DNA of 44,630 bases from Gammaproteobacteria bacterium (GCA_013817465.1 JACDCP010000001.1:1-44630); one strand, 5' to 3'. Positions 2,184 to 43,274 are shown, numbered from the stretch's first letter. The notes: generated from the letters alone by a model not told the origin. Program-made: numbers and translations.

Positions 2184-3218
2184 TCAGAAACCGGCTCGCA
2201 GCCGCACATAGATCAGGGAGAGAACCGCCAGGTGCATCTGGCTTTTTCTGTTCTTCACCAGAGGCACGATTTTGCGCAGCGGATGCTCGATATATTTGTA
2301 GAACCTGCGTTGCGCAGCCGAAAGCCGCGGATTCCCGCAGACCCGATCATAGCCGTGTGCCTCCAGCTCCTTCCACGCCACTGCTTCGAATATCCTGAGC
2401 TCGCGCGGCGACAAGGCCCGCCGCCATTTTTCGGCGTTGCCGGCCATGATCGGCTTTGCCAGATTCGCATCGTTGCGCGCGTCGGTGGGATATCCCTCCT
2501 GCGAGCGATAAAACTTGAGCATGCCCGCGCTGTATTCCTCACCCAGAAAATCGCAGATGCGTCGCACCGTCATTTCGGCGTCGCGCAGCAGATCTTCGTA
2601 ACGCAGCTCGAAATACTGCGCCGGGCCGAGCTTCTCTTCGAGCTCGTGCGCTGCCTCGAGAACCTCCAGCCACCGTAAGGCCGCGGAATATACATGCTTC
2701 GGACCGAACACTGCCTTTTTCCAGGAGACGGCCACATCGCGTCCATCGCGCACGATGTGGATGAACTGCGCCTGCGGAAAATCCTCCAGGATCCGGTCCG
2801 CGAGGAAGAGATGCGCCGGCGTCTTTTCGCCCCAGCGCCGTTTTCCCTGCCCTCTGCACCAGGCCTCCATGATCCCGGCGACAATCCCCCCGAAATCGAA
2901 CCGGCCGTTGGCCTCGATCCGCTCCAGCGCGGCCTGCCTGTCGACACGGGGCAGCCAGTTTCGCAGCACGTCGGTTTGCAGAATGTCGCGTACCAGCCGT
3001 TCGCGGTTCCTGCGCGCGCCCAGATCGCCATAGTGGCGGAGCCAGGGCACGAAGGTCTTGTAGAAATACGATTCGTAGGGGACGGCAATCCCCGGGTGAT
3101 TGCCGATGATCTGGCTGATGAGCGACGTGCCCGAGCGGGGCGTGCCGACGAAAAAGATCGGCGATTCCATTCCCTTGACGGTTGATTTGTCGAAGGCCCC
3201 TTCCATCACGCTCCGCAT
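2184..3218 (-). CDS. sulfotransferase family protein (tandem paralogue)
   Basis: 344-aa ORF with 'FFVGTPRSGTSLI' and 'IHIVRDGRDVAVS', collinear with 1183..2166 over its whole length. The start is uncertain: ATG at 3218, ATG at 3206 (preceded by GGAG-N4) or ATG at 3170 (which aligns with the paralogue's start). Confidence 0.85.
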   Translation of the reverse strand: MRSVMEGAFDKSTVKGMESPIFFVGTPRSGTSLISQIIGNHPGIAVPYESYFYKTFVPWLRHYGDLGARRNRERLVRDILQTDVLRNWLPRVDRQAALERIEANGRFDFGGIVAGIMEAWCRGQGKRRWGEKTPAHLFLADRILEDFPQAQFIHIVRDGRDVAVSWKKAVFGPKHVYSAALRWLEVLEAAHELEEKLGPAQYFELRYEDLLRDAEMTVRRICDFLGEEYSAGMLKFYRSQEGYPTDARNDANLAKPIMAGNAEKWRRALSPRELRIFEAVAWKELEAHGYDRVCGNPRLSAAQRRFYKYIEHPLRKIVPLVKNRKSQMHLAVLSLIYVRLRAGF

Positions 3219-3317
3219 GGTTACCGCTGTGCTGGATATATACTACACTCCGATCTTGCCATGGATTGCCCCGCGTTTCAGACTCCTCCCGGCTGCTCGC
3301 CGGGGCGGCCGTAAAGG

Positions 3318-4346
3318 ATGCGCATGAACAGTTTCTGGGACGGCCGCACTGCCCTCGTCACCGGCGCCGGCGGATTCACGGGCCGGCACCTCGCCACTGA
3401 GCTGAAGCGACGCGGAGCAAAAGTCAGGGCTTTCATCCGGGAAGGCTCGTCATCGGATTTCGAATCGGCGATCGAGATCTTTTCCGGCGATCTGCTCAGC
3501 GACGATGACTGTCATCGCGCCATGCAGGGAATGGATACGATTTTTCACGTTGCGGCTGTCTTCCGTCGCGTTTCGACGACAACGGAAGAGCTGCGCCGGA
3601 TTCATGTGAACGCCACGGAGCACTTGTTGCGGGCGGCCAAAGAAGCCGGCGCGCGGCGTTTCGTGCACACCAGCACGATCGGCGTGCACGGCGGGCTCAA
3701 GGTCGATCGAGCCGATGAGCAGGGTGAATTCAGCCCGAGTGACGATTACCAACTCACCAAGCTCGAGGGCGAGCAACTCGTCAGCCGGCTGGCGCCCGAG
3801 CTCGGCGTGCCGTACAGCATCATTCGTCCCTGCGCGATCTACGGTCCCGGCGATACGCGCTTCCTCAAATTCATCAAGCCGATCAGCCGCGGCATGTTCG
3901 TCATGGTCGGTCCCGGCGAGGTGCACGGTCACTTCGTCTATATCGACGATCTGGTGGAGGGCTTCCTGCTGGCCGGCGAGAAGGAAGAGGCCTGCGGCGA
4001 GACCTTCATCATCGGCGGCATGCGCAGCCACAGCCTGAACGAGTTTGCGCGCACGGTGGCGGACATCTGCGACGTGCGGCGTTCCGGCATCAGGGTGCCG
4101 GTCTGGCCCGTATACGCGGCCAGTGTCGTGTGCGAGAAAATCTGCAAGCTCATCGGCGTGGAGCCGCCGCTGCATCCGCGCCGCGTGGCCTTCTTCACCA
4201 AGCACCGCTCCTTCTCGATCGCCAAGGCCCGCAGGCTGCTCGGCTACGAGCCGAAGACGGATCTCGAGACCGGGATGAGACGCCTGATCCTCTGGTTCCG
4301 GCAGCAGGGCTACATGCACACGATCCTGGTGCTGGTCGGGATGTAG
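3318..4346 (+). CDS. NAD-dependent epimerase/dehydratase (extended SDR)
   Basis: 342-aa ORF with the Rossmann motif 'ALVTGAGGFTGRHL' and the catalytic YxxxK 'YQLTK'. Its stop codon TAG at 4344-4346 lies 2 nt before the palindromic element. Confidence 0.85.
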   Translation: MRMNSFWDGRTALVTGAGGFTGRHLATELKRRGAKVRAFIREGSSSDFESAIEIFSGDLLSDDDCHRAMQGMDTIFHVAAVFRRVSTTTEELRRIHVNATEHLLRAAKEAGARRFVHTSTIGVHGGLKVDRADEQGEFSPSDDYQLTKLEGEQLVSRLAPELGVPYSIIRPCAIYGPGDTRFLKFIKPISRGMFVMVGPGEVHGHFVYIDDLVEGFLLAGEKEEACGETFIIGGMRSHSLNEFARTVADICDVRRSGIRVPVWPVYAASVVCEKICKLIGVEPPLHPRRVAFFTKHRSFSIAKARRLLGYEPKTDLETGMRRLILWFRQQGYMHTILVLVGM

Positions 4347-4348
4347 TC

Positions 4349-4401
4349 AAAATGGGGACATTCCTGATTTTCGTTTCGAAAATCAGGAATGTCCCCATTT
4401 T
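4349..4401. repeat. palindromic REP/BIME-like element, copy 1 (perfect 25-bp stem, 3-nt loop)
   Basis: AAAATGGGGACATTCCTGATTTTCG (4349-4373) is the exact reverse complement of 4377-4401. It lies between convergent genes, and the methyltransferase stop codon (4383-4385) is inside the right arm. It could act as a bidirectional terminator hairpin. Confidence 0.9.
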
Positions 4402-5120
4402 CGGTCAGCGCGCAGGATGACCGGGGAGCCGAGCAGATGCGTCAGGCCGACTGCCCGTGAGGCCGTGTCGGCCGCGCGCACGACAGCGTTTGCGTCGAGC
4501 GCGCGATGGACGAACATCGGCAGAAAGAACTGCTTGCTGGCTCGCGCCGGCGCGAAGCCGTGCTCCGCCAGAACGCCCGCCAGTTCCCCGGCCGTGAAGC
4601 TCGTGTACGTGCGGGTATTCCCTTCGATGCGTTTCTTGAGCGCGAACAGCAGCGGCGTCAGCGCGTTCAGGCTCCACTTGCTCGGGTAGTCCACGACCAG
4701 CGACCGCGACGACACGCGAGCGAATTCGGCCAGCAGCCGTGGCCAGCGCTCGATGTGCGACAGCAGCCGCACCGATATGACCAGATCGAAGGCCTGATTC
4801 GGGTACGGTAAAGCGAGCAGGTTTCCCACGTCCTGACGGACATTTACGTGTGGGTGGATGCCTCTGAAGCGCTCGTAGCATCGCTCGTCGCTGCTCAATA
4901 TCGTCACGTCGTAGTTGCGCTTCAGCAGCAGCTCGGTGAGCTGGCCATGGCCGCCTCCGACGTCGAGCACCGACCTGCCGTCGAAATCGCTCAGCACGTC
5001 TTCGATGGCGGCCGTCTGTGTGTCGAGGAAGTACTGCCCCGCGCGCCCCTGGAAGCGGGAGGCATAGTCAGCCGAGGCGGTCTCGATATCCGGGGTCTCC
5101 GGCGTTTCTTCTTCTTGCAT
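4383..5120 (-). CDS. class I SAM-dependent methyltransferase
   Basis: 245-aa ORF with SAM-binding motif I 'VLDVGGGHGQLT' and a downstream acidic loop 'VTILSSDE'. The last codons (RKWGHS-stop) are encoded by the palindromic element. Confidence 0.8.
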   Translation of the reverse strand: MQEEETPETPDIETASADYASRFQGRAGQYFLDTQTAAIEDVLSDFDGRSVLDVGGGHGQLTELLLKRNYDVTILSSDERCYERFRGIHPHVNVRQDVGNLLALPYPNQAFDLVISVRLLSHIERWPRLLAEFARVSSRSLVVDYPSKWSLNALTPLLFALKKRIEGNTRTYTSFTAGELAGVLAEHGFAPARASKQFFLPMFVHRALDANAVVRAADTASRAVGLTHLLGSPVILRADRKWGHS

Positions 5121-5140
5121 GGACGGCTCGCCTCAGGAGC

Positions 5141-5226
5141 AAATGGGGACATTCCTGATTTTCGTCTCGAAAGGAGAAAATGGGGACATTCCTGATTTCC
5201 GAAAAAATCAGGAATGTCCCCATTTT
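5141..5226. repeat. palindromic REP/BIME-like element, copy 2 (two direct left arms plus one right arm)
   Basis: Left-arm sequence AAATGGGGACATTCCTGATTTTCG lies at 5141-5164. A second left arm at 5177-5198 pairs with the right arm at 5205-5226 (22 bp). The last nucleotide overlaps the ACP stop codon (5226-5228). Confidence 0.9.
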
Positions 5227-5477
5227 CAGGCTGTCTCGGATTGCTCGGAAGTGTGCCGATCGACGACTTCCCTGATCTTGCCGATGCTTTCCAGGGACTG
5301 AATCTCCCGCATGGAGAGCTTGATGCGGAACGCCTGCTCGAGCGCCGTGATGAGCCGGAAATGATTGAGCGAATCCCAGCGGTCGACGGTCTCTGGTGTG
5401 AGATCGTCGGACAGGCTGGATTCGTCCACCTCGAAAACTTCCGCTATGATCTGCTCAACAGTCCTATGCATCTTCAC
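5226..5477 (-). CDS. acyl/peptidyl carrier protein
   Basis: 83-aa acidic ORF with the phosphopantetheine attachment motif 'DRWDSLNHFRLITALE' (DSL). AAGGAA lies upstream of the ATG. Confidence 0.8.
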   Translation of the reverse strand: MKMHRTVEQIIAEVFEVDESSLSDDLTPETVDRWDSLNHFRLITALEQAFRIKLSMREIQSLESIGKIREVVDRHTSEQSETA

Positions 5478-5608
5478 GTTCCTTCGCCGTCGCGAAGCAC
5501 ATCCTGGGCCGATGAAGCCTGCCTCGCAAATTATGCAGAAACCGCCGTCTGCCGTGATGTTAAGTCTGTCACAAGACCGCGCGGCCTTCTACATGAACGG
5601 CGATTAGC

Positions 5609-6562
5609 ATGAGCCGCTTGATAGTGATCGGCAACGGGACCCTGGCCATGGATTGCCTGGCTATGCTGCACGATCGGCCAGCCGCCGAAATCGTGCTGGT
5701 CGTGTACGATCAGCGGGAGCGTTCCATCGGCGGCGGCGTCGCGGCTTGGTGCAAAAACCACAGCGTGGCCGTGCTGCCGGTAGAGAAAAACATCAATGCG
5801 CCGGAGGTCCTGCAAGGGATCACGGCGCTCGAACCCGACCTGATCTTCAATATCAACAGCTTCTTCATCTTCCGCGACGAGCTGCTCGCGGTCGCGAAAG
5901 GCGGCATGGTGAACTTTCACAATGCCCCGCTGCCGAGATTCCGCGGCGTGCACTCACCGTCCTGGGCCATCATCACTGGCGCGACCGACTACGGCGTCAC
6001 CTGGCACTTCATCGACAAAGGAATCGACACGGGTGACATCATCGCCCAGCGGCCGGTCGAAATCAGCGACGACGAAACCGCGCTCAGCCTGACGATCAAG
6101 TGCATGCTGGCGGGCAAGGCGCTGTTCGCAGAATTCATCGACGATTTGCTCGCGGGGGACTTCACGCGCACGCCCCAGTCCGGCCCCGGCTCGTATTACT
6201 CGCTGCGGGATACGCCGAATGGCGGCTATATCGACTTCAGCGACGACTGCAAGATCATCGACCGGGTCGTGCGCGGCCTCGATTTCGGCCCGGCGACCAA
6301 TACCTTCGTGCACGCGAAAACGCGTTTCCGCGAGCGCGATTTCATCGTCAGCCGCGTAAGCTGTAGACCGCAGGCAGCAACGAAACCGCCGGGCACTGCG
6401 CTCAGCACCGACGCCGGGCGGCTGGAGGTTGCGGCAGGTGACGGGATCGTGTCGATAGAAGACGTGCGGTCGGCCGACGGTGAGCCGCTCACGGTATCCG
6501 GGCTTATCGACAAACTGGGCATTCGCCCGAACGATCGCCTGGAGAACGTACGCGTGAGCTGA
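5609..6562 (+). CDS. formyltransferase-family protein (Fmt / ArnA N-terminal domain-like)
   Basis: 317-aa ORF. 'NFHNAPLPRFRGVHSPSWAIITG' matches the N-x-H-x-S-LLP-x-x-RG formyltransferase core, and 'IDKGIDTGDIIAQ' supplies the catalytic Asp region. A C-terminal beta-barrel-like extension follows. Confidence 0.8.
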   Translation: MSRLIVIGNGTLAMDCLAMLHDRPAAEIVLVVYDQRERSIGGGVAAWCKNHSVAVLPVEKNINAPEVLQGITALEPDLIFNINSFFIFRDELLAVAKGGMVNFHNAPLPRFRGVHSPSWAIITGATDYGVTWHFIDKGIDTGDIIAQRPVEISDDETALSLTIKCMLAGKALFAEFIDDLLAGDFTRTPQSGPGSYYSLRDTPNGGYIDFSDDCKIIDRVVRGLDFGPATNTFVHAKTRFRERDFIVSRVSCRPQAATKPPGTALSTDAGRLEVAAGDGIVSIEDVRSADGEPLTVSGLIDKLGIRPNDRLENVRVS

Positions 6563-6638
6563 AATCCCCTGCCGCAAACCGGCCACGAGGAAAACTCCTC
6601 GCTACCGAACGTCATGCAGATAACCGCGCCGATGAGCG

Positions 6639-6724
6639 GGAAAATGGGGACATTCCTGATTTTCCGTGAGATGTTCTTCGGCTAAGCAAGGGCATCCGGA
6701 AAATCAGGAATGTCCCCATTTTCC
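6639..6724. repeat. palindromic REP/BIME-like element, copy 3 (perfect 27-bp arms, 32-nt spacer)
   Basis: GGAAAATGGGGACATTCCTGATTTTCC at 6639-6665 is the exact reverse complement of 6698-6724. It lies between the convergent formyltransferase and ligase genes. Confidence 0.9.
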
Positions 6725-6753
6725 TCTCGCGCGGTGGCCTGCCACAACAAGCA

Positions 6754-8286
6754 TCAACGCTGCGCGATTTCGGCAAGGGCCTGGCGGTCGATCTTGCCGT
6801 TCAGATTCAGCGGCATGTGGTCGATGCTTTGAATGACCCGCGGCTGCATGTACGCCGGCAGCTTGCGTTGCAGATATTCGGCGAGCGCGTCGCCGACGTC
6901 CTCGTAATCCTCGATGAAAAGGTGCAGCCCGCTCGTGCCCTCTTTGTTGGGGACGGCAATGACGGCAGCCTGAGCGCGACCCGCGAACTCCCGCGCGTGA
7001 TGCTCGATCTCACCGAGCTCGACGCGATGGCCGTCGATCTTGACCTGGAAATCCGCCCGCCCGCAGTAGATGAATTTATTCGCTGCGTTGACGAAGCAGA
7101 TATCCCCGGTGCGATAAGCCTTGCCTCCCGTAACCCCTTCGATATCGACGAAGGCCGCAGCGGTCTTTTCCGGATCGCGCCAGTAATGATCGGTGACCTG
7201 GGGCCCTTGCAGGCACAGTTCTCCCATCTCTCCCTGCGCCACCGGCACATTGCCCTCATCGACGACGTACGCGCTCACGTCCGGCATCGGCCGGCCGATA
7301 GCCACGATGCCGTTGACGGCTTCCGCCCGCGCCGATTCGGCTTCCCAGTCGTAGACCAGGCAGTAGATCGTCGCTTCAGTGGGCCCGTAAACGTTCTGGA
7401 TTCGCGCATTCGGCACGCATTTCGACCAGCCCTCGACCAGCCCCTGCGGCAAGGCTTCGCCGCAGAACTGGCTGTGGCGTAAAGCGGGCAACTCGATCTC
7501 GTCGAAGAAGCGTTCGAGGTACGCGAGCGCCGAAGGCACCATGAGGGCCACCGTCAGCTCATGCTCCTGCAGCAGCGTGACGATGTTCATCCAGGCGATG
7601 CCCTTCTCCGGGAGCACATAGCAGCAGGCGCCGATGCACAGAGGCGCGAACAGCGATACCACCGACAGGTCGAACGTCAGCTCGAACATCTGCAGGAACC
7701 GATCCTCCTTCCGGTAATCGCCGATTTCCGGATCGAGAACGACGTCCATGAAGCTGTTGAGATTGCGGTGGTAGATTGGCACGCCTTTCGGCCGCCCGGT
7801 GCTGCCGGAAGTAAAAAACAGGTAGGCCAGGGAATCGGTGTGTATGTCCGCTAGATCCAGGCTGCTGCTGGCGCGCGAATCGGAGTCCAGCCGCCGCGTG
7901 CGCATGACTTCGATATCCACAGGCAGGGCATGCTCGATGTGCCCGGCACTCTCCTGTCGACCGCTGGCCAGCACCACCTCGAGCCCGGCATCCTCGATGA
8001 TCCGGGCATTGCGGTCCTGCGGATGCTTGTTGTTGAGCGGCACATAGGCCGAGCCGTTCGCCAGGATTGCAAGGATGGAGGCATAGGTGGCGGCGTCATC
8101 CCCGGTCAGCACGCCGATGCGCCGCTGATCGGCAAACCCCGACTCCACGAGGCCGTTGCGTATGCCCTGCGCGAGCGCCGAAAGCTCGCGATACGTGTAA
8201 TGTCGCCCATCCGCATACAGCGCATGGCGCTCGGGGAAAAATTTCGCCACTTCGGCGAACTGGTGAATGACCGTCCTGATCGGCAT
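6754..8286 (-). CDS. DltA-like amino-acid adenylating enzyme (AMP-binding, carrier-protein ligase)
   Basis: The listed 971-aa ORF is trimmed to the ATG at 8286 ('MPIRTVIHQFAEV'). Motifs present are 'AYVPLN', 'LAYLFFTSGSTGRPKGV', 'TFDLSVVSLF', 'NVYGPTEATI', 'YRTGD' and 'GRADFQVKIDGHRVELGEIE'. The start overlaps the upstream stop codon (ATGA at 8284-8288). Confidence 0.85.
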   Translation of the reverse strand: MPIRTVIHQFAEVAKFFPERHALYADGRHYTYRELSALAQGIRNGLVESGFADQRRIGVLTGDDAATYASILAILANGSAYVPLNNKHPQDRNARIIEDAGLEVVLASGRQESAGHIEHALPVDIEVMRTRRLDSDSRASSSLDLADIHTDSLAYLFFTSGSTGRPKGVPIYHRNLNSFMDVVLDPEIGDYRKEDRFLQMFELTFDLSVVSLFAPLCIGACCYVLPEKGIAWMNIVTLLQEHELTVALMVPSALAYLERFFDEIELPALRHSQFCGEALPQGLVEGWSKCVPNARIQNVYGPTEATIYCLVYDWEAESARAEAVNGIVAIGRPMPDVSAYVVDEGNVPVAQGEMGELCLQGPQVTDHYWRDPEKTAAAFVDIEGVTGGKAYRTGDICFVNAANKFIYCGRADFQVKIDGHRVELGEIEHHAREFAGRAQAAVIAVPNKEGTSGLHLFIEDYEDVGDALAEYLQRKLPAYMQPRVIQSIDHMPLNLNGKIDRQALAEIAQR

Positions 8287-9977
8287 CAGTCCTGCTCCGT
8301 CCGTTGCCAGGCGGGAAAGCGCTCCTCCAGCGCCTGAATCTCGTGTCGCCCCCGGGCCTCGTCCCAGCCGAGCCGCGCCGCCATGAATCCGGCGGCAAAA
8401 TCGACGGTCTCGCGGGCCGGCAAGGCAAAAGAGGCGATGCCGGTACGCCGGAGCAGCAGATCCCGCAGGTTCCAGGCCATTTCCTCCGCGATCGCGTGCT
8501 CGAGCTCGGCCCGTATTGCCAGCGGGCAGCCCGGCACCGCTTCCGCAAGCGCCGGGGCCCCGTCTGCCAACGCCATGATCCGGTCGAGGCGGCTGCCGTA
8601 GTGGCTCACCATGCGCTGTACGGCGTCCTCCGACAGCCTCGCACCATACCGCCGGCGAGCCGAATCCAGATAGGCATCCGGACCCGCTCTGAAATCCGCG
8701 CCATAGAGCGGCGTGCGCGCCGAGACCGATTGACCTGCATTCAGTTCCGCATCCCGCACGACGCGATCGATGGCGCATTCTGCCACCTGACGCGCCGTGG
8801 TGTACTTGACGCCGGAAATGACATAAAGCCCGCGCGGCGCGCCCGATCCCGCCGCTGCAACGAGCCGGTAACTCGACTCCAGCTCGGGTTCCGAGTGCTC
8901 CTCGCGACCAGTCGCCGGCAGCAGTCCGAGATGGACCTGCGTGACGTCGTCGATATCGAGATGCAGATCGGGCATGACGCCGTCGAGCTGCGCGAGCGCC
9001 GCTTCGACTTCCGCCGCATCGGGTTGCAAGGCATCGGGACCATCGTCGTCGGGGTAATACCACGTCCCCGCCACGCACCCCTCGCGCCAGGGAGCGACGA
9101 ACAGCAAACGACCCGGTGCCGCAGGCGGCGCGGCCGGCAGGACGCCGAGCGCGCAATCCGCCACGCGGCGCCGCAATACGAGATTCATGCCGCGTGCCCA
9201 TGGCTGGCGACGGACGGGCTCCTGCTGCGGATACCACTCGAGGCTGCCTGCCCAGGGTCCGGTGCAATCGATCACCGCCTCCGCCCCGATCTCCATGGCA
9301 GCGCCGGAACGCTGATCGAACGCCCGCACCCCCGAGACCCGGCCATCTTTCATGACCAGCCCGGTCACTGCACAATGATTCAGCGCGTCCGCCCCCGCAC
9401 TTACGGCTGACATGACGAAGCTCAGCACCAGCCGCTCGGCGTCGTGCGCCTGGGCGTCGAACCAGCGCGCGCCGCCGGTGATCCTGTCGTCGCGCAGCGC
9501 CGGCGCTTTGGCCCTGAGCATTTGTGCGGAAATCAGCTTGCCCGCCGGAATCCGCCGCTCCCCGGCGACGCCAAGATTGCGGTCCGCCGAAAGCAGATCG
9601 TTGAGCCCGAGGCCGGCCCGAAGCGCCAGCGCGCTCTTGCCGGACCCGCGATAGGCGGGCATGACGCACTCGAGCGGACGCACGAGATGCGGCGCGATGC
9701 GCAGCAGCGCACGACGCTCGCGCACCGAGGCGCGCATGCGCGGCACATCCAACGTCTGGAGATAACGAATGCCGCCGTGGATGGTCCGCAGGCTGTTGGC
9801 CGAAGTGCCGCTGCCGAAATCGTCCGCTTCCAGCAGCAGAGTCCGCAAGCCGCGCGAGGCGGCCTCCCAGGCCACGGCGGCGCCGTAGATGCCGCCGCCG
9901 GCAACGATCAGCTCATAGCTCTCGCGCAGGCGAGGGGGAAAATGGGGACATTCCTGATTTTCCGAACATCGTTTCAT
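8286..9977 (-). CDS. FAD-dependent oxidoreductase, glycerol-3-phosphate dehydrogenase (GlpD)-like
   Basis: 563-aa ORF with the dinucleotide-binding motif 'LIVAGGGIYGAAVAWEAASRG', the GlpD signature 'GTSANSLRTIHGGIRYLQ' and a C-terminal 'EEMAWNLRDLLLRRTG'. The only ATG (9977) lies in the spacer of repeat copy 4, so the first ~13 codons are repeat-derived and the true start is uncertain. Confidence 0.8.
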   Translation of the reverse strand: MKRCSENQECPHFPPRLRESYELIVAGGGIYGAAVAWEAASRGLRTLLLEADDFGSGTSANSLRTIHGGIRYLQTLDVPRMRASVRERRALLRIAPHLVRPLECVMPAYRGSGKSALALRAGLGLNDLLSADRNLGVAGERRIPAGKLISAQMLRAKAPALRDDRITGGARWFDAQAHDAERLVLSFVMSAVSAGADALNHCAVTGLVMKDGRVSGVRAFDQRSGAAMEIGAEAVIDCTGPWAGSLEWYPQQEPVRRQPWARGMNLVLRRRVADCALGVLPAAPPAAPGRLLFVAPWREGCVAGTWYYPDDDGPDALQPDAAEVEAALAQLDGVMPDLHLDIDDVTQVHLGLLPATGREEHSEPELESSYRLVAAAGSGAPRGLYVISGVKYTTARQVAECAIDRVVRDAELNAGQSVSARTPLYGADFRAGPDAYLDSARRRYGARLSEDAVQRMVSHYGSRLDRIMALADGAPALAEAVPGCPLAIRAELEHAIAEEMAWNLRDLLLRRTGIASFALPARETVDFAAGFMAARLGWDEARGRHEIQALEERFPAWQRTEQD

Positions 9978-10027
9978 CTTGCTGACGAGGAGCCATTTCT
10001 CAGAAAATCAGGAATGTCCCCATTTCC
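9937..10027. repeat. palindromic REP/BIME-like element, copy 4 (27-nt left arm, right arm with 1-nt deletion, ~39-nt spacer)
   Basis: GGAAAATGGGGACATTCCTGATTTTCC lies at 9937-9963. The inverted arm GAAAATCAGGAATGTCCCCATTTCC lies at 10003-10027 and is one T short. The element sits between the GT4 stop codon (10031) and the oxidoreductase 5' end. Confidence 0.9.
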
Positions 10028-10030: not shown

Positions 10031-11197
10031 TCAGGCACTCTGCGCCTGGAGCGGCGCGTATATACCGCCGAGGCAGTCCTTGAACACGCGATAGCTGTGC
10101 TCGCGCTCGATGAGCGCACGCGCATTGCCGGCCAGGCGTTGCCGCAATGCCGGATCCCGCAGCAAGCGGAGCATCTCCGCGGAGAAGCTCTGTTTATCCG
10201 GGCTCGCGAGCGCCGCCGTGCCAGGTGTCATCACTTGGGTGTGGGTCGGCAGATCGGTGGCGAGCACCGCGACGCCGGAGTCGAGGTAGCTATACACTTT
10301 CATCGGCGTATTGAGCCCGTGCACGCGCGGCGAAACCAGCAGGTCCGCCTGCGACATGTAGCTGCCGAGCCGGCCGACGGGTCGCGGACCGGGGAAATGG
10401 GCATGCCCGTCGATGCCCAGCCGCCCGGCCGCTGCCGTATAGCGCTCGATGTCCGGCGTCGAGCCGCCGATGATGACGAGATGCACGTCGTCGAATTCGC
10501 GGCGCACGAGGCTGAAACTCTCGAGCAGCAGATCGATGCCCTGATACTTCTCCAGATTGCCGATGTACATGACCAGGCGCCCGTCGATATCCAGCGTCTC
10601 GCGCAGGTCTTCCGCCGGCCCGCCGTCGCCGGCGACTTCATTCCGCAACGAAACGTCCTTGAGCACCACGATGCGCCGCGGGTGAAACCGACGCACTTCG
10701 TCCGCCAGCGCATCGCACATCGGCACCACCACGTCCGCGTAGCGGATCGGCAGCGATTCGAGAAACACCAGCAGGCGGCGCAGGAAGCGCAGCCGCGGGA
10801 ACCTGTCGACGATCTGCGTGGACATCATCGAGTCCATGTCGACGATGTAGGGGATCGAACGCAAAGGGCATACTGCCAGCGCCATGAAAGACGCTTCCTC
10901 CACAGCGTGCACCACGTCATAGCGCTTGCGCAGCATGAGGCCGAGGAATTTCCAGAACAGAAAGAAATCGCAGACGATCTTGCGCAGCGACAGGCCAGGC
11001 GGAACGTGCTCGATACGGATCCACGGCCGGATGCGATGGATGCGCTCGCTCGGCAGTGTCTCATCGCGCCCGAGATGCAAGGTCAGCAGCTCGACGTCAT
11101 GGCCGGACTCGACGAGCGCGCGCAGCAGCAGGTTGACGGCGATGGGGGTGCCCCGATCCTCATAGAACGGGTGCGGCGCCACCACGAGGATTTTCAT
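10031..11197 (-). CDS. glycosyltransferase family 4 (GT-B)
   Basis: 388-aa ORF. It starts 'MKILVVAPHPFYEDRGTPIA', and the C-terminal half has 'YIGNLEKYQGIDLL' and 'LLVSPRVHGLNTPMKVYSYLDSGVAVLAT' (EX7E-type region). The ATG overlaps the upstream stop codon (ATGA at 11194-11197). Confidence 0.85.
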   Translation of the reverse strand: MKILVVAPHPFYEDRGTPIAVNLLLRALVESGHDVELLTLHLGRDETLPSERIHRIRPWIRIEHVPPGLSLRKIVCDFFLFWKFLGLMLRKRYDVVHAVEEASFMALAVCPLRSIPYIVDMDSMMSTQIVDRFPRLRFLRRLLVFLESLPIRYADVVVPMCDALADEVRRFHPRRIVVLKDVSLRNEVAGDGGPAEDLRETLDIDGRLVMYIGNLEKYQGIDLLLESFSLVRREFDDVHLVIIGGSTPDIERYTAAAGRLGIDGHAHFPGPRPVGRLGSYMSQADLLVSPRVHGLNTPMKVYSYLDSGVAVLATDLPTHTQVMTPGTAALASPDKQSFSAEMLRLLRDPALRQRLAGNARALIEREHSYRVFKDCLGGIYAPLQAQSA

Positions 11198-12090
11198 GAA
11201 GCGCGCTTCCCGGTACGCAAGCCGATCTGATTGCGCACGAATCTCGCGCTGGTCTCGAGCCGGCCGAACGGCCGCCAGGCGATCGAACGATCGCGCAACG
11301 CGCGCTTCAGGTCTGCCGATGGCCGCGCATCCCCGAGCTCCGCCTCGAGCGCGCAGCCGAAGCTGCCGATTCTCTCGACCTCCCGCGGCAGCGGCAGGGG
11401 ATCACTGCCCGGCAAGATGCGCATACCCCTCCTCTGCGCCTGCCGGAAATGTGCAGGATGCTGCCAGAACACCGGACGGCCCGAATTGTCGCCGAGATAG
11501 AGCTCGGCAGCAAAATCGTTCTGCAACAGCCCTTTGAGAATGCGCCCGCGCCGGCCGAGCCATTTGCCGACGGCCCAGGGCAGCACAACCAGAGCATCGG
11601 CGGCCTGTGCCGCATCGATCAGGTCACTGGCCGGTTTCCCATCGGCAAGCCGCTTATCGGTGGCGAGCGTGAGCACTTCCAGCCCTTCGCTGGAGATCAC
11701 CTGGTATCCCGCCACGATCAACAAATCCGTTTCGGCATGCGCAGCTTGCGCACGCACGACCAACGGGTCTTCACTGAATCCATGCAGACGCCAATTGCCC
11801 GCTGTGCCGCCATCGGCCGCCAGCTCGCAAAGCCCTGAGTAACGATCCTCGCGGGCGGTCTCGGCCAGCATCAGGACGCCGGCGGATAATCCCCCGCAAC
11901 CGCGTTCCGCCGCAGTCGCAAAATTGCGACTGGCAGCATTCAGCGCGACTGACGTAGCGAAACCGTCGTAAAAATGTACGTGGCCATCGATGAGCAGCGA
12001 CTTTGCTGATGCGGTCTGCATAGCTGCCAATGGTAAGCCATTCTGTGACAGGCGTGCCTGAACGCCGCCAGACGCGCGGGCTGCAGGCAC
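11194..12090 (-). CDS. hypothetical protein (possible metal-dependent hydrolase, 'DGHVHFYD' motif)
   Basis: 298-aa ORF translationally coupled to the GT4 gene. I recognise no family beyond an N-terminal D-x-H-x-H motif. The listed start at 12090 is GTG; an ATG at 12021 ('MQTASAKSLLIDGHVH') is an alternative. Confidence 0.5.
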   Translation of the reverse strand: MPAARASGGVQARLSQNGLPLAAMQTASAKSLLIDGHVHFYDGFATSVALNAASRNFATAAERGCGGLSAGVLMLAETAREDRYSGLCELAADGGTAGNWRLHGFSEDPLVVRAQAAHAETDLLIVAGYQVISSEGLEVLTLATDKRLADGKPASDLIDAAQAADALVVLPWAVGKWLGRRGRILKGLLQNDFAAELYLGDNSGRPVFWQHPAHFRQAQRRGMRILPGSDPLPLPREVERIGSFGCALEAELGDARPSADLKRALRDRSIAWRPFGRLETSARFVRNQIGLRTGKRAS

Positions 12091-14233: not shown

Positions 14234-15925
14234 ATGGAACAGGATGCCAGCACTCTCAATGACTACGTAGCGACTTTCCGCAGACGGAAGTTTCTCATCC
14301 TCAGCGTGGCGTTCTTCGTCATGCTGATCTTCGTCGCCGTCACCTTCAGCCTGCCCGCGGTCTACCGCTCGACGGGAACCATCCTCATCGAGCAGCAGGA
14401 CATCCCGGACGAGCTGGTGCAGAGCACGGTCTCGAGCTATGCCAACGAGCGTATCCAGATCGTCAGCCAGCGCGCGATGTCGCGGGAAAATCTGGAAAAG
14501 ATCGTCGAAGAGCACAACCTTTACCCGGAAGAGCGCGCCGTCACCTCGATGGACACGGTCGTCGACATCTTCCGCGCCAGCACCCTGCTGGAACCCGTCA
14601 GCGCCGAAATCGTCGATCCCCGCACCGGCCGGTCTTCACTGTCGACGATCGCTTTCACGCTGTCCTACGACAATGAATTGCCCGAGAAGGCGCGCGACGT
14701 TGCCCGCGATCTCGCCCAGCTTTATCTCGATGAGAACGACGCCAGCCGCACCGAAGCGGCCGAGCAGGCCTCGGCCTTTCTCGCCGAGCGGGCCAGTCAA
14801 CTGGAAGAAGAGATTACGAAGATCGAGTCCGCGCTCGCGGATTTCAAAGAGCAGCACGGCAACAGCCTGCCGAGCGTGCTGGATCTGAACCGGGAACGCC
14901 TGCTTGCGGTCGACACCTCGATCAGCGAGACGGAAGGCAGCATCCGGGCGCTGCGCGACAGCCGCAATCTTTTGCAATCCGAGCTCGCGGTAACCGATCC
15001 CTACGAGTCCGTGTATGGGTCGGAGGGCGAGCTCATTCTGAGCCCCGAGCAGCAACTGGCGGCGCTGCAACGCGAATACGCCGCCTTGTCGGCAAGATAC
15101 AGCGAAAATCACCCGAATCTGGTCACCCTGCGCAAGCAGATTGCGCAGCTTTCCGGTGGCGACGCATTCACGAGCAGTGCAGCCATCGACGCTGAGCTCG
15201 AAGTACGGCGGGCCGAACTCGCCGAAGCGCAACAGAAATATTCCGCCGATCATCCCGACGTCACCCACCTGACGCGCCTGATCGAGGGGCTGGAGAGTCA
15301 AAAGGCAAACCTTTCGGAAGAGCCGGCGGCCGCCCCCCAGATTAATCCGACGAGTCCCCTGTACGTACAGAAGCAGGGTCAGTTGAATGCGACGATCAAC
15401 GAGCTGCGCGCTGGCGAAGCAAGGCTCCAGGAGCTGCAGTCGCAACGCGCGGACTACGAGGAACGCCTGATGTCCTCGCCGCAGATCGAACGCGAATACA
15501 CGGCGCTTCAGCGCCGTTATGAAAGCGGCTTGCAGCAGTATCGCGAGATTCAGGACAAGGAACGCACGGCTCAGCTCTCGGCGTCGCTCGAGTCATCGGA
15601 CAAGGGCGAGCGTTTCGCGCTGGTCGAGCCGCCGACCGTGCCGACAGCGCCCGTGAGCCCCAACCGGATGGCGCTGCTGATTCTAGGCTTCGTGCTGGCC
15701 GCCGGAATGGGTATGGGTATCGCCGCGATCGTCGAGGCGATGGACAGCAGCGTGCGCGGGGCGAAAGACGTCTTCCGCCTGTTCGATATGCCGCCGCTCG
15801 CTTCCATCCCCTACGTGGAGAATCACGCAGACGTGCGCCGCAGAGTCGGGCGCAACATCATCACCGCAGGCGTAGCCGCGTTCAGCATCGCGGTCGTTGC
15901 CGTGATCATTCAAGTGCTCGGGTGA
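14234..15925 (+). CDS. polysaccharide chain-length determinant (Wzz-domain, PCP-2b / EpsF-like)
   Basis: The N-terminal transmembrane helix plus 'LPAVYRSTGTILIEQQ' is a Wzz motif. A long coiled-coil periplasmic region follows, then a C-terminal transmembrane helix 'MALLILGFVLAAGMGMGIAAIV'. The first ATG is at 14234; the listed TTG at 14225 is also possible. Confidence 0.85.
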   Translation: MEQDASTLNDYVATFRRRKFLILSVAFFVMLIFVAVTFSLPAVYRSTGTILIEQQDIPDELVQSTVSSYANERIQIVSQRAMSRENLEKIVEEHNLYPEERAVTSMDTVVDIFRASTLLEPVSAEIVDPRTGRSSLSTIAFTLSYDNELPEKARDVARDLAQLYLDENDASRTEAAEQASAFLAERASQLEEEITKIESALADFKEQHGNSLPSVLDLNRERLLAVDTSISETEGSIRALRDSRNLLQSELAVTDPYESVYGSEGELILSPEQQLAALQREYAALSARYSENHPNLVTLRKQIAQLSGGDAFTSSAAIDAELEVRRAELAEAQQKYSADHPDVTHLTRLIEGLESQKANLSEEPAAAPQINPTSPLYVQKQGQLNATINELRAGEARLQELQSQRADYEERLMSSPQIEREYTALQRRYESGLQQYREIQDKERTAQLSASLESSDKGERFALVEPPTVPTAPVSPNRMALLILGFVLAAGMGMGIAAIVEAMDSSVRGAKDVFRLFDMPPLASIPYVENHADVRRRVGRNIITAGVAAFSIAVVAVIIQVLG

Positions 15926-15946
15926 TCGTCGATACGAGGCTGCACC

Positions 15947-16804
15947 ATGGGACGAATTGAGAAAGCGCTGGAAAAGGCCCGCCAGGTGCGGGACCAGGGC
16001 GGTCACGCGGCGCCGGCCCTCCAGGAACGGCGGCATGCGAGCCCCAGCTCGCTCGTTTCCGCGGCACCGCGCCAGAGACGCGAAGCGGCCCATCCGGCCC
16101 GCGCGGAAGAGATGTTCGCCAAGGCCACCGTGCTCGCGGCGGACCCTGACGTGCTGGTCAGGAACCGCATCATCACCAACAGCCAGAACAATCCCGCGCG
16201 ACCGGCCTACAAGATGCTGCGCACGCGCCTCTTGCAGCGCATGCGCTCGAACGGCTGGACATCGCTGGCCGTGACCGCGGCCGGCCCGGGCGAAGGCAAG
16301 ACCATCACCGCGATCAATCTGGCCATCAGCCTGGCCGGCGAAGTGAACCAGCGGGTCTTCCTGGTCGACCTCGATCTGCGCCGGCCGAACATCAGCAAGT
16401 ATTTCGGCATCGAGCCGCAGCACACCCTCAGCGACTACCTGCGTGGCGATGCGACGCTGGACCAGATCCTCGTCAGCCCCGGCATCGACCGGCTCGTTAT
16501 CGTGCCTAACGATACCGTGTTCGAAAACTCGTCCGAATTGCTGTCTTCACCGAAGATCGTGCGCATGGTCGACGAGCTGCGCGTCAGCGACCCGTCCTGG
16601 ATCGTCATCTATGACATGCCCCCGCTGCTGGCGGCGGACGACACTCTTGCATTCTCGCCCTCAGTCGACGCGCTGCTGGTGGTCGTGGCCGAAGGCCAGA
16701 CGACGCAGGATGAGGTGTCGCAGGTGCGGGAACTGTTGAAAGACGCCAATATTGTTGGCACCGTTCTCAACAAGTCCCAGGATGCCTCGTCGGTCTATTA
16801 CTGA
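15947..16804 (+). CDS. BY-kinase-like P-loop ATPase (CpsD/EpsG-type cytoplasmic partner of the chain-length determinant)
   Basis: 285-aa ORF with Walker A 'AAGPGEGKTITAINLA', Walker A' 'VFLVDLDLRRP' and Walker B 'IVIYDMPP'. The C-terminus has only two tyrosines ('SSVYY'). ACGAGG lies upstream of the ATG. Confidence 0.8.
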   Translation: MGRIEKALEKARQVRDQGGHAAPALQERRHASPSSLVSAAPRQRREAAHPARAEEMFAKATVLAADPDVLVRNRIITNSQNNPARPAYKMLRTRLLQRMRSNGWTSLAVTAAGPGEGKTITAINLAISLAGEVNQRVFLVDLDLRRPNISKYFGIEPQHTLSDYLRGDATLDQILVSPGIDRLVIVPNDTVFENSSELLSSPKIVRMVDELRVSDPSWIVIYDMPPLLAADDTLAFSPSVDALLVVVAEGQTTQDEVSQVRELLKDANIVGTVLNKSQDASSVYY

Positions 16805-16864
16805 TCGGCGGCGCTTCTCCCAATCCGCATCCGGGCCCCGGCCGCTACCGCGGATCACCCGACG

Positions 16865-18346: not shown

Positions 18347-18598
18347 GGCGGCCCCATTAATCCGCGTCCTCCACCCCGCGCGTGCGGTACGGTCGGCTCA
18401 AGACGAACCTGCTCACCGACGCGCGCAATCCCGCTCCTATTCACTCATTTCCAGTTTAACTCCATTCGATACATTGTCTGGCGTTTATATCAGAGAGACC
18501 GCCGCCGGGGCTCGAAGCTGCCATGCCGGCGGTCGCGCTCTGCGTGAAAAAGGCGTGCGCGGCATTCGCGTCGGCGGAATGACCACGCGGAGGCGTCA

Positions 18599-23649: not shown

Positions 23650-23912
23650 ACTTTCAAAGTGCCTGGAGGCAGGACCGCTGAATCGAGTGGCAATCGATCA
23701 GAGCTCCGTACCAGTCAAACGACATTTTGGTCCGCCACAAAGTATTATGCCAGAGTCGCCAGACCGCCGAACCGACTGAAACAACGGGCGCCACTCATCG
23801 GCCTCCATGACAGGGGTTCCGAGCAGACCCGGAGTCAAATGTGTCCCTCGCGCATGCTGTCAGCCCCTGGCGATCCAGTTTAGCCATTCCCTTGTCGCAA
23901 AACCGGACTTGT

Positions 23913-23942
23913 GTCACACCGGCACGCGCCGCGATTTACAAT
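23913..23942 (+). promoter_or_regulatory. candidate sigma70-type promoter (GTCACA-N18-TACAAT)
   Basis: GTCACA lies at 23913-23918 and TACAAT at 23937-23942, in the 314-bp gap upstream of the ATG at 23963. This is a sequence match only, with 4/6 and 5/6 matches to the consensus hexamers. Confidence 0.2.
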
Positions 23943-23962
23943 ACTGGCGCTCAGAGTCCTGT

Positions 23963-27004: not shown

Positions 27005-27017
27005 CGTTCAATTAAAG

Positions 27018-40721: not shown

Positions 40722-43274
40722 GTGCGTTCGGAGGGAAGCGTGCTGACTCAACCGCCACAGGTTAACGCCGCGATCACCGGGCGGCAGCTGGCTATACGGA
40801 CCTTCCAGCTTGTCGTACTCGTATATCTGGTTCGCTATTTCGAGATCGGCAGCCCTCAGTTCGGTACGATCATGCTTCTCGCCGTTCCGGCGTTTCTTAT
40901 AAATGCTCTCTTGCCTTTCCGGTATCGACTGGAATGGTTCCTGACCGTGTCGCTCATCGGGATCGTGCTGGTTCTCGGTCCTGTAAGTGCTATCTGGCTG
41001 ATAGCCATCGTCACTGCGTTTATTGCTATCTGTCATCTGCCGGTGCCTCTCGGTTCGCGCATTACGATACTGCTTGCAGCAGGCGCCGCGCTTTTCTTTT
41101 TCCGGCTCCGCGGATGGGGCGTGCCCTGGTCGGAAACCGCATGGCCGATCATTGCGTCGATTCTGATGTTTCGTGTGATCGTATACCTTTACGACCTACA
41201 CCACGAGAAGACACGCCCGTCGGCCCGGTGGAGCCTATCCTATTTCTTCTTGCTGCCGAATGTCTGCTTTCCCCTGTTTCCCGTCGTCGACTTCAAGAAG
41301 TTCCGGCAGACATACTACAGCGAGCCTGCGCCCGTAGTTTACGGGCGGGGAATGTCGTGGATATTCAGGGGCGTTTATCAGCTGATTCTCTACCGCATCG
41401 TCTACCAGTTTGTCGTTATTCCGCCGGAGGAGGTATTTAACGCGGCCCAGCTATTGCACTTCATCGTATCGAGCTATCTCCTGTACCTGCGAGTGTCTGG
41501 ACTTTTCCATCTGATCGTCGGCGTGCTATTGCTTTTCGGATTCAATTTGCCGGAGACACACAAAAAGTATTACCTGGCTTCCAGCTTTAACGATTTCTGG
41601 CGGCGCATCAACATCTACTGGAAAGACTTCATGATGAAGATCTTTTACTACCCGATATATTTCAAGGTCAAAGGTCTGGGCGCCACGCCCGCCCTCATTA
41701 TCGCCACCGTCGCCGTTTTCTTTGCCACCTGGCTACTGCATGCTTATCAATGGTTCTGGCTGCGGGGAACTTTCCTTTTCGAGCTCCACGATTTGCTGTT
41801 CTGGTCAGTTCTTGGCGTTCTGGTCGTCCTCAATTCGCTTCGAGAAATCAAGTATGGACGGGTCAGGTCGATCGGTCGCCAGCCGCTGCTCAGCTCCGGC
41901 CGGTTGTCGAATGTCTGCCGCGTGGCTTCGACGTTCCTGACAATCAGTATCTTGTGGTCCATGTGGAGCTCGGACAGCCTTGAGCAGTGGTTGCTCATGT
42001 GGAAGTCTGCGGGCGGACAAGCCGTCCTCATCGTGATCGCGGTTTTAGTGTTTTATGCGCTCGCGAATTGGGGGGACAAGCGCTCCGAAAAAGTCTCGAC
42101 AAAGGTGCGCACGCTCGTTGGACGGGACGTTGCAGCAGCCGAGCCGGGCGGGATCAGACTCGGGTCAGGTCTCATTGCCGGTAGCCTGGTGGTCCTCGTG
42201 TTCATGAGCCGGCCGGAGATACCCTGGGTACCAGATGCCTATGCGGACATAGCCAGGCAGCTTCGCACGGTACAATTAAATCGGCGCGATCAGGCTCGCA
42301 TGGAGCGCGGATACTATGAGCACCTGCTTAATGTCAACCGGCACAGCGAGGGGCTGTGGACTGCCGTCGAGAAGAAGCCCGCGGACTGGATCGACAATCT
42401 GAATGACACGGAAATTGCGGTCCGTGTGCCGAGATTCCTGATTACCGAACTCGCTTCCGACAAGGAAATCCAGTTCAAGGGCGCTCAACTCAAAACCAAT
42501 CGTTGGGGCATGCGAGATCGCGATTACCCGATAGCCAAATCGAAGGATAGCACGCGCGTCGCTCTGTTCGGCACGTCCCACACGCTGGGATCCGGCGTTT
42601 CAAATGCGCAAGTGTTCGAGCATCTGCTGGAACAGCGTCTCAACGCCGGCGCAGCCGGTGCCACACCATCATCTGCTTATGAAATACTCAATTTTTCCAT
42701 GGTCGCATACAGTGCGTTGCAACACCTTTACCTGCTCGATCATAAAGTTCGAGAATTTCGTCCGGACGCTATAGTCTACTTCGCCCTGGAAGACGATGAA
42801 CGCTTCATCCTGCGGCATCTCAGTCTGGCGATTCGAAACGGCATAGAGATTCCCTACCAACCTGTGCTGGCAATCGTGAACCTGCTTGGACTCGATGCTT
42901 CCCATTCTGACGAAGAAATCCGGCGCAAACTTGCGCCGTACGCTGCAGGGATTCAGGCATGGGCGGAACGTGAGCTGGCAGCGAACATCCGCGGAATGGG
43001 CGCAACCGCTCTGTGTGTATTTCTTCCGAAGGTGCAGTCACGCCCTGACCAGGCAACAGCGGAGACGCGCCAGAGAATAGCTCGGGAAGCGGGCTTCCAC
43101 ACGCTCGATCTCCATGACGTCTACGACGGCTACAGCCGGCAGGAGCTGCAAATCAAACCCTGGGACGACCATCCAAACGAGTTGGCGCATTCGTTGATAG
43201 CAGAGCGCTTGCACCAGGAACTGGTCGATCGGCCGCAATTGCTCGGAAAAAGTTCCTCGCGAATTGCTCGCTGA
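40722..43274 (+). CDS. MBOAT-family O-acyltransferase fused to a C-terminal SGNH/DltD/AlgX-like domain
   Basis: 850-aa ORF. The N-terminal ~470 aa are polytopic, with the MBOAT-type block 'NDFWRRINIYWKDFMMKIFYYPIYF' and a later 'FFATWLLHAYQWFW'. The C-terminal ~330 aa are soluble, with 'RVALFGTSHTLGSG' (block I-like Ser) and 'WDDHPNELAHSLIAERL' (block V-like). The GTG start at 40722 is not verified. Confidence 0.75.
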   Translation: MRSEGSVLTQPPQVNAAITGRQLAIRTFQLVVLVYLVRYFEIGSPQFGTIMLLAVPAFLINALLPFRYRLEWFLTVSLIGIVLVLGPVSAIWLIAIVTAFIAICHLPVPLGSRITILLAAGAALFFFRLRGWGVPWSETAWPIIASILMFRVIVYLYDLHHEKTRPSARWSLSYFFLLPNVCFPLFPVVDFKKFRQTYYSEPAPVVYGRGMSWIFRGVYQLILYRIVYQFVVIPPEEVFNAAQLLHFIVSSYLLYLRVSGLFHLIVGVLLLFGFNLPETHKKYYLASSFNDFWRRINIYWKDFMMKIFYYPIYFKVKGLGATPALIIATVAVFFATWLLHAYQWFWLRGTFLFELHDLLFWSVLGVLVVLNSLREIKYGRVRSIGRQPLLSSGRLSNVCRVASTFLTISILWSMWSSDSLEQWLLMWKSAGGQAVLIVIAVLVFYALANWGDKRSEKVSTKVRTLVGRDVAAAEPGGIRLGSGLIAGSLVVLVFMSRPEIPWVPDAYADIARQLRTVQLNRRDQARMERGYYEHLLNVNRHSEGLWTAVEKKPADWIDNLNDTEIAVRVPRFLITELASDKEIQFKGAQLKTNRWGMRDRDYPIAKSKDSTRVALFGTSHTLGSGVSNAQVFEHLLEQRLNAGAAGATPSSAYEILNFSMVAYSALQHLYLLDHKVREFRPDAIVYFALEDDERFILRHLSLAIRNGIEIPYQPVLAIVNLLGLDASHSDEEIRRKLAPYAAGIQAWAERELAANIRGMGATALCVFLPKVQSRPDQATAETRQRIAREAGFHTLDLHDVYDGYSRQELQIKPWDDHPNELAHSLIAERLHQELVDRPQLLGKSSSRIAR

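Follow-up and report, generated by a model that had tools for sequence, protein, structure and literature searches.

The initiation module of the nonribosomal peptide synthetase (NRPS) LgrA contains a formylation (F) domain, which formylates valine bound to a carrier protein (PMC10510592). In the Dlt system and in Vibrio AlmEFG, which places glycine onto lipid A, free-standing adenylating enzymes and small carrier proteins decorate glycans of the cell envelope. N-formyl-aminoacyl substituents of polysaccharides are known chemically, a precedent being the N-formyl-L-alanyl group present on the Vibrio anguillarum O2 polysaccharide (PMC10059132). Literature searches returned no biosynthetic genes assigned to such substituents and no discrete formyltransferase (FT) that acts together with an adenylating enzyme and a carrier protein other than in NRPS megasynthases, glycan loci included; a search for the tetronate genes of V. 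cholerae O1 (rfbKLMNO) as a precedent also gave nothing. Here we describe candidate genes for a decoration of this kind in a 44,630-nt stretch of DNA (hereafter the window), a contig of a metagenome-assembled genome (MAG) of a gammaproteobacterium (GCA_013817465.1, JACDCP010000001.1:1-44630).

Nearly the entire window is taken up by a single exopolysaccharide (EPS) locus of the XrtA type, which is rich in sulfotransferase genes and in which two gene modules are interleaved. Module A consists of an FT, an amino-acid adenylation ligase and a carrier protein, and module B is built around a flavoenzyme. The three proteins of module A are probably a widespread team that makes an N-formyl-amino-acid decoration for the sulfated EPS, and on balance we favour the interpretation that they correspond to the formylation–adenylation–peptidyl carrier protein (F-A-PCP) initiation module of LgrA, divided over three polypeptides. 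In the mechanism that we propose, the ligase would adenylate an alpha-amino acid, for which a small neutral residue is our guess, and load it onto the carrier protein's phosphopantetheine arm. The FT would transfer a formyl group from N10-formyl-tetrahydrofolate (N10-formyl-THF) to the alpha-amino group of the tethered aminoacyl, and a transferase, which in sister-locus types may be a hexapeptide protein, a DltB-like MBOAT or an Antibiotic_NAT protein, would pass the N-formyl-aminoacyl group to the polysaccharide. Module B would install and redox-tailor a sugar or polyol residue, which may be the acceptor for variable acyl-donor modules.

Formyltransferase, ligase and carrier protein of module A

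The FT (5609..6562, plus strand, 317 aa) passes the cut-offs of both of its domains (Formyl_trans_N, PF00551, 71.1 bits; Formyl_trans_C, PF02911, 36.4 bits) and falls below those of the equivalog models for Fmt (TIGR00460, 83.3 versus 201.5 bits) and ArnA (NF005998, 127.5 versus 777 bits). Its relatives were collected in a scan with one genome per species, which resulted in 80 loci from many phyla; neighbouring genes were identified by tblastn and clustering of open reading frames (ORFs). The family ranges over Pseudomonadota, Geobacterales, Planctomycetia, Bacteroidota, Selenomonadales, Legionella and some archaea. It includes an alphaproteobacterial clade without a ligase gene nearby (L013, L015, L017–L019 and L026; the prefix L denotes related loci), and in L017 the FT gene directly follows that of a TauD-family dioxygenase and lies beside a sulfatase gene and a GT47-like gene. 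Residues N102, H104 and D140, which align with the catalytic triad of ArnA, are invariant in 50 FT relatives (33–68% identity) and are located inside the motif VNFHNGPLPRYRG.

An adenylation-type ligase gene is found no more than 6 kb away from the FT gene in 45 of the 80 loci. When only loci with at least 6 kb of flanking sequence on both sides are counted, the ligase is present in 17 of 29, or in 19 of 29 if gene fusions are included. Most commonly, the ligase gene is followed on the same strand by the FT gene, the two being adjacent or overlapping, with a small carrier protein gene beside them. In a neighbour-joining tree of the FTs, linkage to the ligase extends over nearly the whole family.

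The strongest evidence for joint action of the three proteins is provided by a gene fusion present in nine loci (L053, at 2318-7051, L055, L057–L060, L062, L065 and L067). The fusion protein, of approximately 1580 aa, combines Formyl_trans_N/C, AMP-binding, PP-binding and thioester reductase domains in one chain and is carried by Legionella moravica, other Legionella, Holosporaceae and Omnitrophota, bacteria that are intracellular or belong to candidate phyla. Its adenylation (A) domain possesses the canonical valine code DAFWLGGTFK, and the top solved match of this domain is the valine-activating A1-PCP1 of LgrA (756 bits). The F-A(Val)-PCP-reductase (R) layout implies that the product is N-formyl-valinal or N-formyl-valinol. 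In Legionella the gene after the fusion encodes a hybrid histidine kinase that contains PAS, receiver and Hpt domains.

The ligase (6754..8286, minus strand, 510 aa), of the DltA/NRPS A-domain type, qualifies as an amino-acid adenylation domain (TIGR01733, 342.9 bits; cut-off 317.4). It stays below the equivalog cut-offs for DltA (TIGR01734, 268.7 versus 559.85 bits; NF003417, 276.6 versus 476 bits) and below the cut-off for the XrtA-type ligase (TIGR03098, 187 versus 592 bits). Its best solved matches are PheA (212.7 bits), DltA (about 197 bits) and the second A domain of LgrA (191.8 bits per domain; 336.3 bits for the whole chain). The motif 'FDLSV' was verified, and a MAFFT alignment to a PheA reference, for which the alignment reproduces the published code DAWTIAAICK, yielded the specificity code DLVLQCVIYK, with Asp235 and Lys517. 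Asp235 touches the alpha-amino group of the substrate, and the two residues together are the marks of alpha-amino-acid activation; both are kept by every FT-linked ligase that was aligned. L001 and L073 share this code exactly, and the codes of L021 and L035 are almost the same. Codes vary between locus types, which suggests that lineages differ in the amino acid they use. The ligases of L011, L029 and L036 have distinct codes, with FRK at the end. A pyridoxal phosphate (PLP)-dependent decarboxylase of the ornithine/diaminopimelate (Orn/DAP) type adjoins the FT or lies near it in L010 (17614-18840), L011, L014, L029 and L036, an arrangement resembling the XrtA-associated ligase/decarboxylase set.

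When the ligase code was compared with those of A domains and DltA, as the sequence-only reading had proposed, Asp235, Lys517 and a DltA-like cysteine, located in the sequence 'FCGE', were present, and none of the codes known to us matched. Four of the ten code positions are in common with what we take to be the code of DltA. The bulky code residues together with the DltA-like cysteine hint, at most, at a small neutral amino acid.

The carrier protein (5226..5477, minus strand, 83 aa) matches PP-binding (PF00550, 25.5 bits; cut-off 20.8) and has its serine in WDSL. The serine of WDS(L/M/F), the site of phosphopantetheine attachment, is kept in nearly all carrier proteins encoded beside an FT and a ligase in other loci. 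Taken together, conservation of the FT triad, frequent FT–ligase adjacency, retention of Asp235 and Lys517 in the linked ligases and, above all, fusion to an LgrA-like valine module lead us to accept the idea, raised from the sequence only, of a free-standing A/carrier/F set acting in trans.

Several observations weigh against this interpretation. The closest solved relatives of the FT are sugar-nucleotide formyltransferases (the FT domain of ArnA, 97 bits, and GDP-perosamine FT), and it matches the F domain of LgrA with only 42 bits (Fmt, 75 bits). About one third of the informative FT loci, falling into three clades, have no ligase nearby. The flavoenzyme and ligase genes overlap by one base in the window, so that the two modules could still be functionally linked. 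We know of no specificity code equal to DLVLQCVIYK. The 44.6-kb window encodes neither a hexapeptide nor an Antibiotic_NAT transferase, nor any clear MBOAT. Finally, module A is interpreted from a MAG contig.

Considered in isolation, the FT would be taken for a sugar formyltransferase; it is the gene context that points elsewhere. An ArnA-like role would have it formylate a nucleotide- or lipid-linked amino sugar, which an ArnC-like glycosyltransferase of family GT2 would load onto undecaprenyl phosphate and an ArnT-like GT-C glycosyltransferase would transfer, while the ligase and carrier protein would be unrelated, serving for example Dlt-like aminoacylation. Among solved structures and NCBIfam models, the N-terminal domain of ArnA and PRK06988 do indeed match the FT best, some FT homologues have no ligase at all, and the window encodes both an ArnC-like GT2 (19-1005; 180 bits to PRK10714) and a PMT_2 (ArnT-like) GT-C (35420-37132), whose presence in one locus suggests that one branch of glycosylation is periplasmic. 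Beside the flavoenzyme module, the ArnC-like gene is also kept in L001, L014, L085 and L086. However, there is no DegT/ArnB aminotransferase in the window, neither an ArnD-type deformylase nor a decarboxylase of UDP-GlcA (UDP-glucuronic acid) turned up in its annotation, and the ArnC-like GT2 also occurs in loci which have the flavoenzyme and no FT. The dominant pattern, moreover, is FT–ligase adjacency and fusion with an LgrA-like valine module. We therefore regard the ArnA-like role as unlikely and prefer formylation of a carrier-bound aminoacyl group.

The five genes fall into two modules

In the sequence-only reading, module A was part of a single five-gene cassette that also included a class I S-adenosylmethionine (SAM)-dependent methyltransferase (4383..5120, minus strand, 245 aa; Methyltransf_25/11/23) and a GlpD/GlpO-like flavin adenine dinucleotide (FAD) flavoenzyme (8286..9977, minus strand, 563 aa; DAO and DAO_C domains). 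ORF calling and profile searches verified the five ORFs, with their positions, families and motifs. In that reading, the combination was not recognised from any polysaccharide locus. As a single cassette, the set did not hold up: the five genes split into two modules, which are interleaved in this lineage. The FT gene lies on the strand opposite to that of the other four genes, so that the region consists of four transcription units and is no single operon. The junction of the flavoenzyme and ligase genes is TGATG, with a 1-nt overlap at 8286, instead of the ATGA overlap that had been described. All five genes recur in L001, which is syntenic with the window and its closest relative, and in L073, but only four of the five do so in L010, L014, L021, L034 and L035. 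Adjacency of the flavoenzyme and ligase genes is limited to the window and L001 and is not kept in L010, L014, L021 and L073.

In addition to the flavoenzyme, module B comprises an extended short-chain dehydrogenase/reductase (SDR) of the HpnA/3beta-HSD-like type (3318..4346, plus strand, 342 aa) and a GT4 glycosyltransferase (10031..11197, minus strand, 388 aa), both assigned by family profiles, and a metal-dependent (phospho)esterase-like protein with the PHP fold (11194..12018, minus strand, 275 aa), assigned by structure match. The flavoenzyme family returned 1811 matches at E <1e-20, compared with ∼50 close FT relatives (about 50–80 for the FT family), and the families of module B are 15–30 times larger than that of the FT. 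Three flavoenzyme contexts were sampled (L085, L086 and L087). All three contain the GT4, flavoenzyme and SDR of the module B core, and L086 and L087 also its PHP-like protein, which was not detected in L085; none contains an FT or an amino-acid adenylation ligase. The GT4 gene is located immediately upstream of the flavoenzyme gene (50–55% identity to the window GT4), the SDR gene follows the latter (34–43% identity to the window SDR), and in L086 and L087 a PHP-like gene lies upstream of the GT4 gene. A homologue of the ArnC-like GT2 is present in L086 (63% identity), and a sulfotransferase homologue is also found in flavoenzyme-only contexts.

Homologues of the methyltransferase lie beside the FT in L001 and L073 only and are absent from most FT loci. 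In L085, one is located beside the GT4 gene (47% identity), and the same locus encodes a GlpD-like flavoenzyme fused to a class I methyltransferase domain (P0197, 8371-10974, 867 aa), which implies that the methyltransferase is functionally linked to the flavoenzyme module. The methyltransferase is thus more likely to be part of module B.

These results bear on whether all five gene products could act on one carrier-bound substrate, with the flavoenzyme oxidising and the methyltransferase methylating the formylated aminoacyl or hydroxyacyl group before its transfer. The 1-nt overlap of the flavoenzyme and ligase genes would fit such a pathway, as would the interleaving of the two modules in eight loci. 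So would a peculiarity of the flavoenzyme family: the arginine of the 'GxRP' motif of GlpD/GlpO, which presumably binds the substrate anion, as in enzymes of the DAO family, is replaced by leucine in the window flavoenzyme and never occurs among 121 relatives, all of which have L, Q or V at this position, and its loss would be consistent with a masked carboxylate. On the other hand, the flavoenzyme, SDR, GT4 and, save in L085, PHP-like genes stay together in loci devoid of an FT and an amino-acid ligase, their families exceed that of the FT by the factor given above, the flavoenzyme–ligase adjacency is lost in four related loci, and most FT loci lack the methyltransferase. Module B is far commoner than module A and is also found on its own. 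Tailoring of the aminoacyl group by the flavoenzyme and methyltransferase, as had been suggested from the sequence only, is therefore unlikely, and we consider a single pathway for the five genes quite unlikely. The division into two modules, with formylation confined to module A, is the reading we retain.

The solved structures of GlpD and GlpO are the top matches of the flavoenzyme (119–181 bits), albeit its score against the GlpD profile is well under the cut-off (198.3 versus 360 bits). As the arginine of 'GxRP' is replaced throughout the family, the flavoenzyme is probably not a glycerol-3-phosphate dehydrogenase. The PHP-fold protein has no match in Pfam or NCBIfam. Its homologues number more than 1224 and are without exception annotated as hypothetical. 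Residues D12, H14 and H16 (D-x-H-x-H) are invariant. Its AlphaFold2 model (pLDDT 94) matched, in a Foldseek search, the PHP phosphoesterase TM0559 (E 2.6e-7) and also PsfC.

The SDR could alternatively be an in-trans thioester reductase, which would free an N-formyl amino aldehyde or alcohol from the carrier protein, to be followed by glycosylation by the GT4, oxidation by the flavoenzyme, or an amide or ether link into the EPS. The existence of the F-A-PCP-R fusion and the lack of an identified acyltransferase in the window would agree with reductive release, and the SDR does show a weak likeness to thioester reductases (PF07993, 1.7e-18; TIGR01746, 61 bits; 26% identity to the R domain of the Legionella fusion over 200 aa). 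However, its matches to HpnA (168 bits) and to the OleD and 3beta-HSD types are better, and its orthologues follow the flavoenzyme gene also where no carrier protein is near, for instance in L086. This alternative appears to us very unlikely, and we keep the SDR with module B.

The acyl-donor set found with module B varies from locus to locus: F/A/carrier protein in the window, AMP-binding and hexapeptide proteins in L085, and a hexapeptide protein alone in L086. In L087, genes for an FkbH-like loader, an acyl carrier protein (39% identity to the window carrier protein), a MaoC dehydratase, a ketoreductase and a hexapeptide transferase (15222-19077) lie 4 kb from the GT4–flavoenzyme–SDR genes and seem to be another acyl-donor set for this type of locus. 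This pairing with different sets suggests that module B builds a residue that becomes acylated. Its combination of a transferase, a phosphatase-like protein, a flavin oxidase/dehydrogenase and an SDR may mirror the logic of mycobacterial decaprenyl-phospho-arabinose synthesis.

Proposed delivery to the polysaccharide and other features of the locus

Transferases are encoded next to the FT, ligase and carrier protein in several related locus types. DltB-like MBOATs (166–200 bits to TIGR04091) lie beside the triad in L004, L008, L036, L050, L056 and L077, so as to form a dltB/dltC/dltA-like set with an FT. Proteins of the Antibiotic_NAT family lie beside it in nonulosonic-acid loci, which contain NeuB and DegT. 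A 175-aa hexapeptide-repeat acyltransferase gene adjoins that of the carrier protein in L010, L014, L021, L034 and L073, which are of the window type. Searches of the window with family profiles (hexapeptide, Antibiotic_NAT and PLP-decarboxylase) and by tblastn with a relative of Asn synthase gave no match, and L001 likewise encodes no hexapeptide, Antibiotic_NAT or DltB-like MBOAT transferase. Because no clear transferase is present in the window, delivery to the EPS in this organism is inferred.

The only candidate transferase, of low confidence, is an 850-aa membrane protein encoded at 40722..43274 (plus strand), 30 kb from the triad. Seven DltB-like MBOATs linked to FTs were combined into a profile, which weakly matches residues 44-349 of this protein (37 bits; E 3e-11, for a small database), and its C-terminus weakly matches SGNH (GDSL-like) proteins (E 0.0012). 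A Pfam search yielded no MBOAT match and a sequence search of the PDB no match. The protein could be an acyltransferase of a fused type, resembling DltB/DltD or AlgI/AlgJ.

Extending this to the whole family, we tentatively suggest that its FTs N-formylate aminoacyl groups on carrier proteins and that a discrete F/A/carrier protein system decorates extracellular polysaccharides, delivering N-formyl-amino acids through Dlt-like MBOAT, hexapeptide or NAT-type routes and grafted, in this lineage, onto a module B that builds the acceptor. Formylation removes the positive charge of the amino group and should stabilise the aminoacyl ester. If the suggestion is true, NRPS-style initiation chemistry would be available as a free-standing kit for glycan decoration, and Dlt-like systems of Gram-negative bacteria would gain a rationale; direct testing would be open to about 80 public loci, with Geobacter sp. 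AOG1 (L009), Legionella moravica DSM 19234 (L060), Selenomonas sp. AE3005 (L061) and S. bovis among the cultured carriers of the triad. A second lead is module B itself, a separate four-gene module of which environmental EPS loci contain more than 1000 members, whose PHP-like and flavoenzyme members are nearly all unnamed.

The remainder of the EPS locus encodes an XrtA-type chain-length determinant, a tyrosine autokinase, many GT2 and GT4 glycosyltransferases, a flippase and a B12-radical SAM enzyme. It also contains nine sulfotransferase-like genes (1183-2166, 2184-3218, 18599-19438, 19493-20524, 23807-25111, 25169-26098, 31731-32651, 34420-35406 and 37145-38008), which implies that the polysaccharide is heavily sulfated. 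Fragments of an IS66-family transposase are found at 26973-28120, in the middle of the locus and directly downstream of a stretch of low GC content (0.49, 25-26 kb).

The palindromic 21-mer AAATGGGGACATTCCTGATTT occurs in nine exact copies in the window (0 expected), all confined to four intergenic sites within 5.7 kb (4349-10025), with none in the other 39 kb. Site 1 (4349..4401), between the convergent SDR and methyltransferase genes, has 25-nt arms and a 3-nt loop; its hairpin (-40.4 kcal/mol, z -8.9) scores as a terminator on both strands. Site 2 (5141..5227), between the carrier protein and methyltransferase genes, holds three copies. Site 3 (6639..6724), between the convergent FT and ligase genes, consists of 28-nt arms and a 30-nt spacer. 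Site 4 (9937..10025), in the start region of the flavoenzyme gene, has 26-nt arms and a 34-nt spacer that contains the start codon. The hairpins are very stable (-40 to -58 kcal/mol, z about -8). The last five codons of the methyltransferase gene (KWGHS*) derive from the repeat, as do codons 6–13 of the flavoenzyme gene; the hairpin at 9937-10025 holds in its loop the only possible in-frame start of the latter gene, ATG 9977. A flavoenzyme start downstream of the repeat was rejected, because beyond 9977 the reading frame contains no ATG, GTG or TTG before the GxGxxG motif.

The repeats had been thought to bracket the cassette. Copies are found inside the set as well (5141-5227 and 6639-6724), and the outer repeats overlap genes. 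The 21-mer is absent from all 87 related loci, syntenic L001 included, and is present on at least 120 unrelated metagenome stretches, high-GC contigs otherwise unlike the window, mostly as inverted pairs with 36–75-nt spacers. It is neither specific to the ends of the gene set nor seen to move together with it. Therefore, it is a dispersed element of this bacterial group, similar to repetitive extragenic palindromes (REPs) or miniature inverted-repeat transposable elements (MITEs), and a role of the repeats as cassette boundaries or regulator sites was rejected.

Comparison with known systems

Of the described systems, GlpD/GlpO share with the flavoenzyme the DAO and DAO_C domains. The flavoenzyme differs from them by its sub-cut-off score, by the loss of the 'GxRP' arginine and by its company in a polysaccharide locus (GT4, SDR and PHP-fold protein). 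The ligase–acyl carrier protein–PLP-decarboxylase set of XrtA/PEP-CTERM loci (TIGR03098/TIGR03099) belongs to the same type of EPS locus, and a decarboxylase lies beside several FTs; the window ligase, however, is an amino-acid A domain and not an XrtA-type acyl-CoA ligase, and no decarboxylase was found in the window.

The N-terminal domain of ArnA, the FT acting on UDP-Ara4N (UDP-4-amino-4-deoxy-L-arabinose), has the two-domain layout and the triad of the window FT and is its best solved match, and the window contains ArnC- and ArnT-like genes. In contrast to ArnA, the window FT scores far below the cut-off (127 versus 777 bits) and is not fused to a decarboxylase; ArnB was not found and the annotation includes no ArnD. 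Its family is linked instead to adenylation and carrier protein genes.

Closer in their logic are the Dlt and AlmEFG systems, in which, as presumably here, a free-standing adenylating enzyme and a small carrier protein serve to decorate an envelope glycan. The window ligase shares 'FDLSV' and the 'FCGE' cysteine with DltA, and some FT loci have a DltB-like MBOAT. The differences are that the ligase is below the DltA cut-offs and has another specificity code, that an FT is added, that the host is a Gram-negative bacterium with an EPS locus, and that the window is without a clear DltB, DltD or AlmG-type acyltransferase.

The LgrA initiation module differs from module A in that the latter consists of three separate proteins, encoded by different transcription units in an EPS context, with neither a condensation domain nor a peptide product; the in-cis fusion of an LgrA-type FT to A-PCP is not found in the window, where the FT is free-standing. 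The window FT also retains Formyl_trans_C and is nearer to ArnA and Fmt (97 and 75 bits) than to the short F domain of LgrA (42 bits). What the two have in common is adenylation, a carrier protein and an FT fold of the N10-formyl-THF type with the Asn/His/Asp triad, and relatives of the window FT are fused to just such an LgrA-like, valine-activating A-PCP.

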